A stretch of DNA of 64,000 bases from Candidatus Bathyarchaeota archaeon (lineage in GTDB: Archaea; Thermoproteota; Bathyarchaeia; Bathyarchaeales; Bathycorpusculaceae): NCBI GenBank assembly GCA_963772455.1, contig CAVYXJ010000012.1, positions 32,001 through 96,000 on the forward strand. Reading direction: 5' to 3'. The first letter of the stretch is position 1; each line of letters begins with the position of its first letter. Under the pieces are notes generated by a model. The model saw only the letters and a program-made list of their open reading frames with translations. It ran no database searches and was not told where the DNA came from. Made by a program: the position numbers and the translations under genes. Positions 16,608-25,469 of the stretch are shown here, in pieces.

Positions 16608-16751
16608 TTAGTATCGGCGTGGTGGTCTTCGTTTTGCGTAGCATTCTCGGCAGTATACTGGCCTGCTTCCGTCTGGCTTGAAAGGAACATCACATTCTTT
16701 TCCGCAGTCTGCGCAGGTTGCCTTGTGCATCTCTTTTGGATATGAGGACAT
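16608..16751 (-). CDS. CxxC-x17-CxxC zinc-binding protein (47 aa)
   Basis: MSSYPKEMHKATCADCGKECDVPFKPDGSRPVYCRECYAKRRPPRRY; below the ORF track cutoff. Confidence 0.9.
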   Translation of the reverse strand: MSSYPKEMHKATCADCGKECDVPFKPDGSRPVYCRECYAKRRPPRRY

Positions 16752-17111
16752 TTAATTTTTCACTTCCTGTTTTATTGCTTTTGCAAATTACTTTGCAAGG
16801 TTGTTTAATGCTGACCTTACTATAAAGCTTATCCGTAGACAAAAAACAAAAGAGGTATTTCTTCACTTACAATTTTTAGGGTTACTTTCTTAAATATTTC
16901 TCATTTACAGCCATAAAACGTTTAAATGGATAAAAAAGAATTGAACTATTAATCAAAGAAGTTAATTGTCGAAATAATCTTTGGTATAATTATTTGTCAA
17001 CTATTGAGTGTGCTGTTTTGACTTTTTTTCTAATGTTCTAAATGGTACAATTTTTTCAGATTTTGTAGTGTAGATGTCACAAAATATAAGTTGAACTTGA
17101 TTCTTAGTTGT

Positions 17112-17351
17112 TTATGCAGGTCTGGGAGCAAGCTTTAGATGTAATGCATTGAGGCATAGAGTGCATTAATTAGAACAGCGAAAAATTAGTGCGCGATAAA
17201 GTCTTTGCCTTTATGGGCTGAACATGCATAGCGTTGGAATCATCTAAGCTGTGAAGTGGTAGGTTCAAAACGGCTGCAAGAATCTGCTGCGATTAAGGAA
17301 TTGCTTAGGTGGGTCGTAACCAGCGATAAGGCTCAGACTAGACCTGTGTAA
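17112..17351 (+). ncRNA. Unassigned structured RNA, about 240 nt
   Basis: 13-bp closing stem plus at least six internal helices with G-U pairs favouring the + strand; TATA-like AATATAAG at 17083-17090; GC raised over the flanks. Confidence 0.75.
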
Positions 17352-17514
17352 TTTAAGTGGAAAAAAATAGATATAGAAATATTCTAAAAATTCCACTTTT
17401 TTTTAATATTTAATTGAACGAGTCTTGGTTTTAGTTTAATGCGTCTATTCTTTGAAGAGCTTTATCTTTTTTATATGACATAGTTATTTACAGAATTTTT
17501 GCCAAGTGTTGTAT

Positions 17515-17572
17515 AGTTAGTAAAGAAAGTTTGACTAAGCATTTTTAAAAGTTAGTAAAGAAACCTTTACGA
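17515..17572. promoter_or_regulatory. Tandem operator-like repeat
   Basis: AGTTAGTAAAGAAA at 17515 and 17550, each the left arm of an imperfect palindrome (GTAAAG-aaac-CTTTAC in copy 2). Confidence 0.6.
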
Positions 17573-17605
17573 AAAAGCTCTTAAGAACTGGGCATCAACG
17601 ATATT

Positions 17606-18801
17606 TTGATGGAAATGAAAGCTTTCAATACTTTAATTCTGGCAGTAATGATCGTTTCTATTTCTATTGTTTTCTTTCCTGTGAGTGCTAACGATAATTT
17701 TTCGGTAGGTGTCAAAAAAGGTGATTGGATTGAATATACCGTTAACATTACGGGTCCTACTTCGGCTCCAATTCATAATATCAGTTGGTTTAGAATTGAA
17801 ATTTTAGATGTTGAGGGTGTAGCGTTTGATGCAAATGTTACGGTTAGGAATGTTAATGGGTCATTGAGCAGTTCGATTTGGGAGTTTAACTTCTCCGAGG
17901 GGAATGTTGAAGGTTGGGTAATAATTCCTTCGAACTTAGGTGTTGGCGATATTTTTTATGATTCTTCAAAGCCTGCAAACATTACTATTTTGGGTGAAGA
18001 ACAAAAAATTGTGGCTGGTGCAACCCGAACAATAACACATTCTTCTGATTCTACAAGACCGATCAAGGAATGGGATAAAGCTACAGGTGTATACACTTAT
18101 TCGGTAGAATACCCAAAAAACTTCACAGTAATATCCCAAGCTATTTCAACAAATATGTGGAATCCTCAAACTCTGGACTTAAACAAGACGACATTTAACG
18201 CAGTGGTTGCGCTAAGTATTGTTTTAACAGGATTCATTGCATCGTCTTTAGTTATTACACGAAGAGATAAAATAAGAAAGCTCACTTTGATTCATTCATC
18301 GCAAGGAAAAATCGCAGTCCTTACTATTCTTAGCAACAGTTTTAGGAATAATTGGAGCCATAGTGTTCTTCCCTTTTTCTATAGGTAGGGTTGAGTTTTG
18401 CTGAGATTAACCTTATTATGCAAACTATATGGACAAGTTTGATTTTAGTGAGCATGTTTTTTAGATTTAAAGGAAAATATTTTGTTCATGAGATTACAAT
18501 GTTAATTGCAATTTGTGCCTTGTTAGTTAGTTTTTCTGCTGTAATATTTATGGGTCCGCTAACTACCAGTTCCGCTTTCTCTAGTTCACTTTCTCGTTTG
18601 GTTATGAATAGTTTGCATGGTATTTTTTCTATTCCCGCAATAGTTTTTGGAGTATGGCTAGTATTACTTTGGCGTCCAGGGTCAGATTCGTTTGCGTTTA
18701 AGAGTAAAAGAATAGCGCAATTAACAATAATTTTTTGGGTCCCATCGTATGTGGTGGGTGTTTTAGATTTTATTTTACTTCATACCAGTTTCTTTGGATA
18801 A
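17606..18801 (+). CDS. Secreted N-terminal domain fused to a multi-TM C-terminal domain (two extra bases near 18329 and 18384)
   Basis: Signal peptide and VGVKKGDWIEY motif; the frames of ORFs 17606 and 18391 differ by +2, matching two +1 insertions that restore a TM helix. Confidence 0.65.
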
Positions 18802-20243: not shown

Positions 20244-20618
20244 TTAAATTATTTTTATTCTTTCATCGTTTATGTTAGCAAATTTTTTGTCTCTTGTTAA
20301 CAATTCTTCGTCGTTGGCAAGTGAAATTCCAGCGATAAGCAAGTCATTCTCGTTAATCATCTTTCCGTTTTCTTTCAGTCTCTCATAAACTGAGGCTGCT
20401 TTTCTAGCAGATGCACTATCAAAGGGGCAGACAGTTATTTCCGATAAGAAATCCTCCGCAAGGTGCTTTTTCAGAGCATTTTTATGCTTAAGCAATTCAT
20501 ACTCCGTTATCGTGGTTGTTTTGAGGTGCTCTGTCTTAGCGAACTTCTTCACGAAAGCGATAACCTTTTCGTCGCCTGCTAGGAAAGCTATTATAACGCT
20601 TGTATCGAGGAAGGTCAT
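20244..20618 (-). CDS. vapC: PIN-domain toxin
   Basis: FLDTSVII, TEYE, DLLIA and LLTRD acidic residues. Confidence 0.92.
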   Translation of the reverse strand: MTFLDTSVIIAFLAGDEKVIAFVKKFAKTEHLKTTTITEYELLKHKNALKKHLAEDFLSEITVCPFDSASARKAASVYERLKENGKMINENDLLIAGISLANDEELLTRDKKFANINDERIKII

Positions 20619-20851
20619 TTGCTCTCTTCAAAGTCCCTTCCGTAGTTAACTTCTCTTTCGGCAGCTATTGTTGCGTTCAATTCCTCAAGTTTCTTTCTTT
20701 CGTTTTTCATGGAACCCGCGAAACGCATAATATCCTTTTTTTCTTCTTTTAAACATAGGTTTTCTTTTATGACCTCTGAAAAGCTCTTTTTGCCTTTTCT
20801 TTTTGAGAGAAGTTCGTAGACTTCATTTGAAATTGAAATCTGCCTTGCCAC
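20615..20851 (-). CDS. vapB: Antitoxin (archaeal VapB/DUF217-like)
   Basis: ISISNEVYELL...KSFSEVI; 4-nt overlap with vapC. Confidence 0.88.
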   Translation of the reverse strand: MARQISISNEVYELLSKRKGKKSFSEVIKENLCLKEEKKDIMRFAGSMKNERKKLEELNATIAAEREVNYGRDFEESK

Positions 20852-25156: not shown

Positions 25157-25469
25157 GGGCTGGTGTGTTGGTTGTAACCCGCCTTCTGTTGTCTGTGGCA
25201 TTCGGCTAATCGGGCTACCCGCGCCTTCCGGTAGATTCTTCATCGGCGACTGTTTGCCCTTTCCACATGCAGGACGGCCGTTTCACCGCTTCCAGCCCAG
25301 CACACTCGACATCACAAATGTCTCATAGCCTATCTGGGTGGACGTTTCGTTTCTGCTCCGTTGCCAAGGCTCTCGCCTTGTTCCCTGCGGAACTGCACTT
25401 CTACTTGTGGGCGGAGTTTCCTCAGACCCAAATTTTGGGTCCGAAAGCCACACACCAACTCGCCAGCCC
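25157..25469 (-). ncRNA. rnpB: RNase P RNA (archaeal)
   Basis: P1 GGGCUGG/CCAGCCC; GAGGAAACUCCGCC; CAGAAAC; GGUGAAACGGCC; AACAGAAGGCGGGUUA. Confidence 0.96.

Follow-up and report, generated by a model that had tools for sequence, protein, structure and literature searches.

Circular RNAs released at motifs of the bulge-helix-bulge (BHB) type have been described in several archaea, and we compare with them an RNA gene in the window, a stretch of 64,000 nucleotides from a soil archaeon of Candidatus Bathyarchaeota (contig CAVYXJ010000012.1, positions 32,001 to 96,000, forward strand). In Thermoproteus, the gene for the signal recognition particle (SRP) RNA is permuted, and its RNA regains the SRP fold through BHB cleavage and circularisation (Plagens et al. 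2015, eLife; PMC4731332). In circular pre-16S and pre-23S ribosomal RNA (rRNA) and in circular 23S rRNA, the flanks form a processing stem with a BHB motif and the excised RNA is ligated (PMC7714728; PMC12918454). Outside transfer RNA (tRNA) and rRNA, Haloferax volcanii has a BHB intron in the 5′ untranslated region (UTR) of HVO_1309, and this intron too is excised in circular form (PMC7714728). Introns of tRNAs also form circles, both in archaea (stable introns) and in metazoa (tRNA intronic circular RNAs, tricRNAs; PMC4536317), and the structured omega-RNAs of IS200/IS605 elements in Halobacterium occur as circles as well (PMC12558985). At 17114-17349 on the + strand the window contains a gene that we read, with a probability of roughly 80%, as dedicated to a circular, highly structured non-coding RNA made by BHB processing.

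The RNA of the window resembles each of these systems in part. Like the Thermoproteus SRP RNA, it stems from a non-coding RNA gene whose product would arise by BHB cleavage and circularisation, in an organism of the same phylum-level group (PMC4731332); unlike it, the RNA is encoded colinearly, has a fold without a match among known families and coexists in the genome with a normal SRP RNA. With the circular pre-rRNAs it shares a processing stem that is formed by the flanks and carries the BHB motif, and an excised RNA that is ligated (PMC7714728; PMC12918454), whereas the cargo of the window family is not rRNA but an RNA of 106-205 nucleotides (nt) with its own promoter. From the HVO_1309 intron, which is 46 nt long and has no reported conserved structure (PMC7714728), it differs in that the excised part is conserved, structured and modular, and in that most copies of the family have no downstream open reading frame (ORF); leader copies in one genus (g16, see below) do share the position of this intron relative to the ORF. 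The tRNA-intron circles have the same circular topology and presumably the same enzymes, but they are by-products of a host tRNA, while the "exons" of our RNA are only a stem. Omega-RNAs lie beside TnpB (PMC12558985), whereas a Pfam scan of the ORFs adjacent to our RNA detected no transposase family. We regard BHB-made archaeal circular RNA as an already known kind of molecule, and the fold and the dedicated gene as new. We found no earlier description of this RNA family in full-text searches of the literature; the supplementary circular RNA tables of PMC7714728, PMC12558985 and PMC12918454 might list similar RNAs.

Bulge-helix-bulge motif and probable circular product

The archaeal splicing endonuclease cuts after the second nucleotide of each bulge of its substrate, the bulges each lying 3′ of the central helix on their own strand. 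The initial annotation of the locus, made from the sequence alone, had proposed a linear RNA of about 240 nt with a closing stem followed by GAGC/GCTC. Both elements lie where that annotation had placed them (17114-17125/17338-17349 and 17126-17129/17331-17334), and together they are a canonical BHB motif, with a helix of 4 base pairs (bp) between two bulges of 3 nt. The motif and its product comprise the following elements.

17114-17125, + strand: 5′ strand of the closing stem P1, the BHB outer helix h; an "exon" outside the circle, pairing with 17338-17349
17126-17129, + strand: GAGC, 5′ strand of the BHB central helix H, pairing with GCUC at 17331-17334
17130-17132, + strand: 5′ bulge AAG, with the predicted cut between 17131 and 17132
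17331-17334, + strand: GCUC, 3′ strand of helix H, pairing with GAGC at 17126-17129
17335-17337, + strand: 3′ bulge AGA, with the predicted cut between 17336 and 17337
17338-17349, + strand: 3′ strand of P1, the other "exon", pairing with 17114-17125
17132-17336, + strand: apparent mature circular RNA of 205 nt, its joint seen in RNA contigs

In the window, helix h is the 12-bp stem P1 and the inner helix h′ is formed by 17133-17135 with 17328-17330. The locus has a 4-bp helix, two opposite 3-nt bulges and flanking helices of at least two Watson-Crick pairs, as expected of a splicing-endonuclease substrate under the hBHBh′ definition (PMC7714728).

The motif is strongly conserved. A pattern search found the BHB frame in 50 of 52 homologous loci, although it mis-registered four of these 50 (all from family f21); helix H with 4/4 pairs and the bulges ANG and AGR are kept in all 50, while 41 of the loci form 7 or 8 of the 8 outer-helix pairs and 38 form all 3 pairs of the inner helix. 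For pairing statistics we used two structure-blind MAFFT alignments, namely A2 with 23 same-genus homologues that contain two of the modules described below, and A5 with 29 one-module sequences from 10 families. Helix H is 100% paired in both (23/23 and 29/29 sequences), and its changes are one-sided and keep the pairs (G-C, G-U and A-U; C-G and U-G). P1 is 85.1% paired with compensatory changes at 9 of 12 pairs in A2, and 87.3% paired with 10 of 12 in A5.

For evidence at the RNA level, contigs of four metatranscriptome runs from four studies were compared with 16900-17700. Their cover is confined to 17128-17357, with no contig before 17116, and it drops at both predicted cut sites. None of the four runs covers the flanks, though from missing contigs over 16900-17115 and 17359-17493 no absence can be concluded. 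In two RNA studies, contigs join 17336 to 17132, going back 205 nt without ambiguous letters, and this joint coincides exactly with the predicted splicing-endonuclease cuts after the second base of each bulge. One contig of run X16, 235 letters long, shows the RNA in circularly permuted form (205 + 30 letters). A contig of run X19 has no mismatch over 106 nt (17132-17237), and the 12 letters ahead of this stretch are those of 17325-17336. Contigs of diverged relatives, including one of high depth in X16, and an X19 contig of a second paralogue type have this joint too, in the same place within the motif. Seven of the RNA contigs listed are 224-236 letters long, approximately the circle plus 30 letters. 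From the joint at the BHB cut sites we conclude that the stable product appears to be a 205-nt circle, 17132-17336, which replaces the linear RNA of the initial annotation. The circles predicted across loci are either 106-112 or 195-205 nt long.

The 14-mer that spans the joint is absent from the DNA of the source genome. Elsewhere in the genus, 14 of 120 genomes contain it, at 16 places in all, compared with 4 places for the reversed control. Five of the 16 places were inspected and lie inside conserved protein-coding genes, with no match to the one-module covariance model R2; we read them as probable chance words common to orthologues. The source genome encodes two EndA paralogues (PF01974, 99.6 and 76.5 bits), as expected for the (alpha-beta)2 enzyme of this archaeal group, and one RtcB (PF01139, 596 bits).

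The joint also bears on the explanation that comes next in probability, though it is improbable: a linear stand-alone RNA of about 236 nt whose ends are protected by the closing stem, the joints being by-products or assembly artefacts. The strong covariation of the closing stem would suit such an RNA, as would a 229-letter contig of run X15 that is colinear with 17128-17357. Against it, the joint falls exactly at both cuts predicted from the BHB motif, and does so in two studies, in diverged relatives and in a second paralogue group. In addition, the 5′ strand of P1 is without any contig and cover falls at both cut sites, while the 4-bp helix and both 3-nt bulges are kept far beyond the needs of a protective stem.

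Fold and tandem modules

Folding of the + strand gave -81.3 kcal/mol with a z-score of -3.47, and 0 of 200 shuffled sequences folded as well, whereas the - strand was unremarkable (z-score -0.77, 45 of 200 shuffles as good). G-U pairs are frequent and A-C pairs rare, so the transcribed strand is +, as initially proposed. The RNAalifold consensus on a MAFFT alignment of 24 copies contains 52 pairs, 28 of them with compensatory changes. Our revised model is paired in 91.5% of the cells of A2, with 38 of 65 pairs compensatory and a covariation score of 0.382 compared with 0.228 in shuffles, and in 90.4% of the cells of A5, with 42 of 53 pairs compensatory and a covariation score of 0.514 compared with 0.245; in neither alignment did any of 500 shuffles reach the observed value. 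Slid-partner controls on A5 stayed at or below 0.142. The elements of the model inside the circle are listed here.

17132-17137, + strand: GCUUUA, 5′ strand of helix P2, pairing with UAAGGC at 17327-17332 in the circle register
17147-17220, + strand: module 1, with helix P3 (17147-17156/17206-17215), GA step (17159-17160) and helix P4 (17161-17171/17184-17194)
17172-17183 and 17195-17205, + strand: loop L4 and strand J4/3 of module 1
17176-17179/17217-17220, + strand: PK1, CAGC with GCUG, the pseudoknot of module 1
17241-17317, + strand: module 2, with helices P3′ (17241-17248/17304-17311) and P4′ (17258-17265/17281-17288)
17270-17274/17313-17317, + strand: PK2, ACGGC with GUCGU, the pseudoknot of module 2

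Diverse members of the family fall into two size classes of about 137-143 and 226-236 nt. On sequence comparison the long form turned out to derive from the short one by duplication of the core, and the two "domains" to be tandem homologous modules of about 75 nt each; R2 matches each half of the long forms separately. A three-module copy, with an internal duplication of module 1, occurs in genome G013 (L020 / L072, G013:C12:34744-35063).

Each module consists of the outer helix P3, a GA step, the inner helix P4 of about 11 bp, loop L4, strand J4/3 and a pseudoknot. L4 has 12 nt with the consensus GAAACRGCUGAA, and J4/3, on the return strand, has 9-11 nt (GAYAAAGAC). In the pseudoknot, the four loop bases CRGC pair with GYYG located 1-2 bases after P3. 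The module is a hairpin of about 23 bp interrupted by an asymmetric, GA-containing internal loop. Because P3 and P4 are about equal in length, we infer that the hairpin folds back at this internal loop, which would let L4 reach the foot of P3.

In A2, module 1 is well supported in P3 (92.1% paired, 5 of 10 pairs compensatory), P4 (95.6%, 7 of 11) and PK1 (100%), and module 2 in P3′ (90.2%, 7 of 8), P4′ (85.3%, 6 of 8) and PK2 (90.1%, 4 of 5). The pseudoknot of the one-module relatives in A5 is 97.4% paired and covaries, with GC in 19, AU in 6 and GU in 4 sequences at one pair. Helix P2 has 11-12 bp in one-module relatives, 8 of the pairs being compensatory. In the precursor (BHB) register its positions 17133-17135 and 17328-17330 make up helix h′; once the circle is ligated, the GCU with which it starts can pair with a GGC close to its end, closing a UYAG tetraloop that holds the joint.

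The model of the initial annotation is paired in 78.1% of A2 overall, and half of its eight helices stand. Besides GAGC/GCTC (100%) and the closing stem, which in the form first drawn is 83.8% paired with 9 of 11 pairs compensatory, these are CAGC/GCTG (100%), which is the pseudoknot PK1, and GGTAGGTT/AATCTGCT (85.3%, 6 of 8 compensatory). The remaining four had to be abandoned: the proposed closure of domain 1 by AGC(T)TTAGATG/CATCTAAGCT (70.1%, with four pairs unpaired in 11-20 of the 23 sequences), the hairpins TAATGCATT/AGTGCATTA (68.6%) and ATAAAG/CTTTAT (58.0%), and GCGATT/GGTCGT (75.4%). A kissing contact between two hairpin loops, AGGCA with TGCCT, had also been suggested. These bases do pair, only not as a kissing loop, since they form the inner half of the nested helix P3 (17147-17156/17206-17215); as first drawn, the contact overlapped the ATAAAG/CTTTAT stem by 2 nt. 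The real pseudoknots run from loop to tail and lie elsewhere, in PK1 and PK2.

Two known motifs were considered for the conserved internal parts. In a kink turn (K-turn), which binds L7Ae, a C-stem is followed by a 3-nt bulge 5′ of tandem G-A/A-G pairs and then by the NC-stem. GA steps are conserved on both strands of the P3/P4 internal loop. As we read it, the 7 extra bases follow the GA on the 3′ side of their strand, opposite to the order in a K-turn. For the GAGC.../...UYAGA internal loop at the base of the RNA, a K-turn reading was dropped once the circular joint had shown a BHB motif there. A hammerhead core (CUGANGA...GAAA) in L4 was dropped by eye, the word being unconserved in the genus and leaving no room for the stems. 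In the SAM-I (S-adenosylmethionine) riboswitch a K-turn enables a loop-to-junction pseudoknot, and riboswitches with tandem aptamers exist. Our modules would work like SAM-I only in that an internal loop with tandem G-A steps lets a hairpin fold back and its loop pair with a distant strand, and in being arranged in tandem; unlike SAM-I, they have their extra bases 3′ of the GA step, the majority of copies lie outside leaders, and there is no sequence or Rfam similarity.

Gene, distribution and competing explanations

As the initial annotation had claimed, the non-coding RNA of 17114-17349 (+) has a stand-alone gene with its own promoter, and this promoter contains an archaeal TATA box. Two elements delimit it.

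17074-17090, + strand: promoter read from the sequence, conserved upstream element ATGTCACAAAA followed by the TATA-like box AATATAAG at 17083-17090
17355-17404, + strand: downstream hairpin, AAGUGGAA (17355-17362) pairing with UUCCACUU (17391-17398), ending in a T8 run (17397-17404)

The box AATATAAG, found where it had first been reported, lies 23 nt ahead of the first paired base, 17114. Of the 49 homologous loci scorable for it, 46 have a TATA-like word in the interval 12-42 nt upstream of P1, and in relatives a conserved GUGCAAAAG-like element often precedes this word; the second copy of the gene in the source genome has a closely similar upstream element. The hairpin with its T8 run is likely the transcription end, a prediction consistent with a TTTT run at most 25 nt after P1 in 30 of 49 loci of relatives. 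Only ORFs of 31-43 amino acids (aa) overlap the RNA region.

The gene is widespread in its group. At the DNA level, 21 of 41 related genomes gave matches to the stretch, and the boundaries of the matches are those of the closing stem. The covariance model R1, built from 23 copies, detected homologues in 96 of the genus's 120 genomes (64 of 73 when only those of high quality are counted) and in 74 of 151 genomes of the order, including f11 (33/34), g16 (19/19), g30 (20/20) and f5 (4/4) and only 2 of 25 in f6. In the class, 25 of 151 genomes were positive with R1 and 28 of 151 with R2. A phylum-wide draw of 151 genomes searched with R2 gave 8 positives, all of them Bathyarchaeia, and none among the 131 genomes of other classes. 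Finally, when 185,579 species genomes were scanned for an exact pattern, 69 stretches matched. Of these, 32 are from Bathyarchaeia or Bathyarchaeota records and 2 belong to a "Thermoproteota archaeon"; the remaining 35, which come from bacteria and from two further archaea and match by the pattern alone, we take for probable chance hits. Of two lineage markers, McrA was not found, and neither was AmoA, whose control gave no signal in any genome and makes that negative uninformative.

Many genomes contain 2-5 copies, and most small genomes a single one at a syntenic place, such as g30 (20/20). The second copy of the source genome (G000:C5:51956-52182; L079:3001-3227, +) is a diverged two-module RNA that scores 182.8 bits with R1 and is oriented divergently to a gene of the Alba family (Pfam PF01918). 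Many genomes of the genus contain the second paralogue group of which it is a member. In G015 two full copies stand in tandem on one contig, about 860 nt apart (L018:631-886, 1490-1745).

Next, we examined the neighbouring genes. Upstream in the window lies a 47-aa ORF on the opposite strand (16608-16751, -) with two CxxC pairs, zinc-ribbon-like, and downstream the gene of a secreted 260-aa protein (17606-18388), 257 nt away and beyond the hairpin and T8 run. Within 1.5 kb of the RNA the window has no ORF longer than 260 aa. In f11, f5 and f12, the RNA gene sits between a convergent ATP-dependent DNA ligase gene and a divergent 216-aa gene; with both neighbours on the opposite strand, the RNA cannot be their leader.

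This arrangement bears on a further improbable account, slightly less credible than the linear one, in which the RNA acts in cis, as a leader controlling the gene downstream of it, be it in the manner of a riboswitch aptamer or as a regulatory 5′-UTR intron. Pseudoknotted modules that are arranged in tandem and have invariant unpaired bases do resemble riboswitch aptamers, and a 5′-UTR BHB intron is known in Haloferax (PMC7714728). Moreover, the genus g16, which has cultured representatives, contains extra one-module copies that precede small ORFs of the same strand by 29-53 nt, and these ORFs have a GAGGUGA ribosome-binding site. This placement holds for at least 6 of 12 extra copies by ORF listing and for 3 more by eye (loci L093, L095, L120, L202-L208), and on their position these copies would be 5′-leader BHB introns of mRNAs. 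The products of the small downstream ORFs may resemble dodecin, a cold-shock protein and a small zinc-ribbon protein. Leader placement was found for these g16 copies only. Against a leader in general speak the opposite-strand neighbours in f11, f5 and f12, the hairpin, T8 run and 257-nt gap that follow the RNA in the window, the lack of a common function among downstream genes, which are unrelated, and the fact that the conserved part is the excised part.

Less probable again is an intron-like element of selfish or mobile nature, or a viroid-like RNA integrated into the genome. Its product would be a small circle as well, and the 2-5 copies in several genomes stand in varied contexts, in g1 and g16. 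However, each copy has a regular archaeal promoter and most small genomes keep one copy in synteny, whereas no ribozyme or Rfam hits were obtained, no target-site duplications were noticed and the copies are not inside a host RNA gene.

As initially predicted, the RNA has no match in Rfam. At gathering scores the only hit in the whole window is the archaeal RNase P RNA at 25163-25463 (-, 198.3 bits), whose presence elsewhere in the window had been announced as well. At E <= 10, six chance hits appear on 16850-17600 (E 1.4-8.7), all far below gathering scores, and at E <= 5 nothing overlaps the RNA in 12 diverse relatives. For guide RNAs of the C/D-box or H/ACA type, too, there were no hits above chance level. 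SRP RNA (RF01857) has no match in the window, and the SRP RNA and 5S rRNA of the genome lie on other contigs (158.2 and 69.8 bits). There are two SRP RNA matches with equal scores of 158.2 bits (G000:C2:8678-8992 and G000:C5:140801-141115), which may be a duplicated region of the assembly. A diverged or permuted copy of a universal RNA (SRP RNA, RNase P RNA, 5S rRNA or guide RNA) missed by Rfam, for which the permuted SRP RNA of Thermoproteus restored by BHB circularisation is a precedent (PMC4731332), has a negligible probability, with normal SRP, RNase P and 5S RNAs in the same genome, a best E-value of 1.4 in the region and a variable module number that fits none of the four.

Several points weigh against our reading of a dedicated gene for a circular RNA. 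The RNA evidence consists not of raw reads but of assembled contigs, which carry neither strand, ends nor abundance, and DNA contamination of metatranscriptome libraries is possible. The linear X15 contig means that a linear form, a precursor or DNA is present as well. That EndA and RtcB act on this RNA is something we infer. In the fold, the precursor and circle registers of P2 are inseparable by covariation, as the alignments fit both, and within the genus PK1 is invariant or changed on one side only, its covariation coming from other families. The term stand-alone does not apply to all copies, failing for the g16 copies upstream of small genes. Lastly, the family is patchy within the class, R2 being negative in f17 (0/14), f31 (0/10) and f35 (0/11) and positive in only 1 of 27 f24 genomes, which indicates that the RNA is not a universal housekeeping RNA, or has diverged past detection by the model.

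On the reading of a dedicated circular RNA gene, the RNA would be transcribed from its own TATA-box promoter, and the 5′ and 3′ ends of the primary transcript would pair as P1 and, with GAGC/GCUC, form the BHB motif. The splicing endonuclease EndA would cut after nucleotide 2 of each bulge and RtcB would join the ends of the excised piece to the 205-nt circle, leaving short flanking "exons" in which nothing but the stem is conserved. In the circle, P2 would be capped by a 4-nt loop with the ligation joint and would bear the two tandem modules. We propose that this circle may be the functional form, an exonuclease-resistant, long-lived and trans-acting RNA, and that invariant unpaired bases in L4, J4/3 and the GA step may form binding sites in the modules. 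With low confidence, we suggest that the pseudoknot modules, being repeated, act as scaffold or sponge for a protein, or that they possibly bind a small ligand. A module number that varies (1, 2 or 3) and the absence of a fixed neighbour favour a trans-acting protein scaffold or sponge over a cis regulator.

Bathyarchaeia are almost uncultured, and very little is known about their RNA biology. They are widespread in soils and sediments, and the metagenomes considered here include soil, wetland, permafrost, freshwater sediment and ice. The family would add to this biology a widespread, conserved, genome-encoded circular RNA with tandem fold-back pseudoknots, made from a dedicated gene via the tRNA-splicing machinery. 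BHB processing would here go beyond intron removal or the maturation of rRNA and SRP RNA, since it would make a stable structured circle as the main gene product. The frame could serve as a natural scaffold for the expression of circular RNA, and the module with its pseudoknot and conserved loops is a defined target for structure work and for the search for a ligand or protein partner.

Variant cores and a possibly nuclease-like neighbour

The 216-aa protein encoded next to the RNA, P0001 (L083:2269-2919, -), has its gene divergent from the RNA gene in many families, though not in the source genome, where no copy of the RNA lies next to the P0001 homologue (G000:C7:270044-270667; L213:1459-2133, -). 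P0001 has no Pfam or NCBIfam match, also at lax thresholds. It has 662 relatives, every named one being a hypothetical protein of Bathyarchaeia, and is 46-81% identical across families. The AlphaFold2 model is confident (predicted local distance difference test, pLDDT, 91.9), and Foldseek gave weak matches in the PDB (best E 1.3e-3, template-modelling scores 0.27-0.37). Most of these are PD-(D/E)xK nucleases (CdiA-CT, XisH, SfsA, FokI, NucS, HindIII, Cas4 and Can2), which weakly suggests that P0001 may be a nuclease-like protein of the PD-(D/E)xK fold.

P0001 is present in 74 of 151 genomes of the class and in 26 of the 28 that are positive for the RNA; the two RNA-positive genomes without it are 85% and 68% complete. 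In 15 of the 26 genomes with both, the two genes are adjacent and divergent. RNAs of type III toxin-antitoxin systems (ToxI-like) consist of tandem pseudoknot repeats directly upstream of, and co-oriented with, a patchy and poorly conserved endoribonuclease toxin gene. This class was rejected for our RNA, as the gene of the PD-(D/E)xK-fold protein is divergent, 46-81% identical across families and not adjacent in the source genome.

To look at P0001 loci beyond the pseudoknot-module RNA, we examined 20 loci upstream of P0001 homologues in genomes without it. Eight of them (f14 x3, f27 x2, f10, f20, f22) have the same promoter, P1, BHB motif and P2 frame with a different core, and a 166-nt variant is present at the P0001 locus in three other genera of the source family. 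The following RNAs with variant cores share the frame.

L220:1261-1414, - strand: variant-core RNA
L221:2208-2358, + strand: variant-core RNA
L227:2215-2369, + strand: variant-core RNA
L228:1214-1366, - strand: variant-core RNA
L229:1206-1357, - strand: variant-core RNA
L222:1146-1278, - strand: variant-core RNA
L223:2324-2491, + strand: variant-core RNA
L231:2357-2498, + strand: variant-core RNA
L210:2503-2664, - strand: variant-core RNA
L211:2503-2665, + strand: variant-core RNA
L212:2503-2663, - strand: variant-core RNA
L122:2503-2664, - strand: variant-core RNA

They represent at least five unrelated core types with predicted circles of 106-141 nt. Rfam at E <= 5 gave nothing over the RNAs of 7 variant-cargo loci, and the 7 f24, 2 f17 and 1 g23 P0001 loci examined have no cassette. 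Judging by these comparisons, the frame of promoter, P1, BHB motif and P2 looks like a conserved cassette that may carry different cargos. A bolder proposal, which we consider doubtful, is that the frame is a natural "circular-RNA display cassette" of Bathyarchaeia, that the circles are RNA partners of P0001 (guide, regulator or inhibitor), and that the window RNA is a cargo type that was duplicated and moved from the ancestral locus. If this were true, circles and nuclease-like protein would make up an RNA-protein system without a described counterpart. The possible link to a class-specific protein of nuclease fold is directly testable.

Further downstream in the window, two overlapping small ORFs of 124 and 78 aa are located at 20244-20851 (-), which we take, by eye, to resemble a PIN-domain toxin with its antitoxin.

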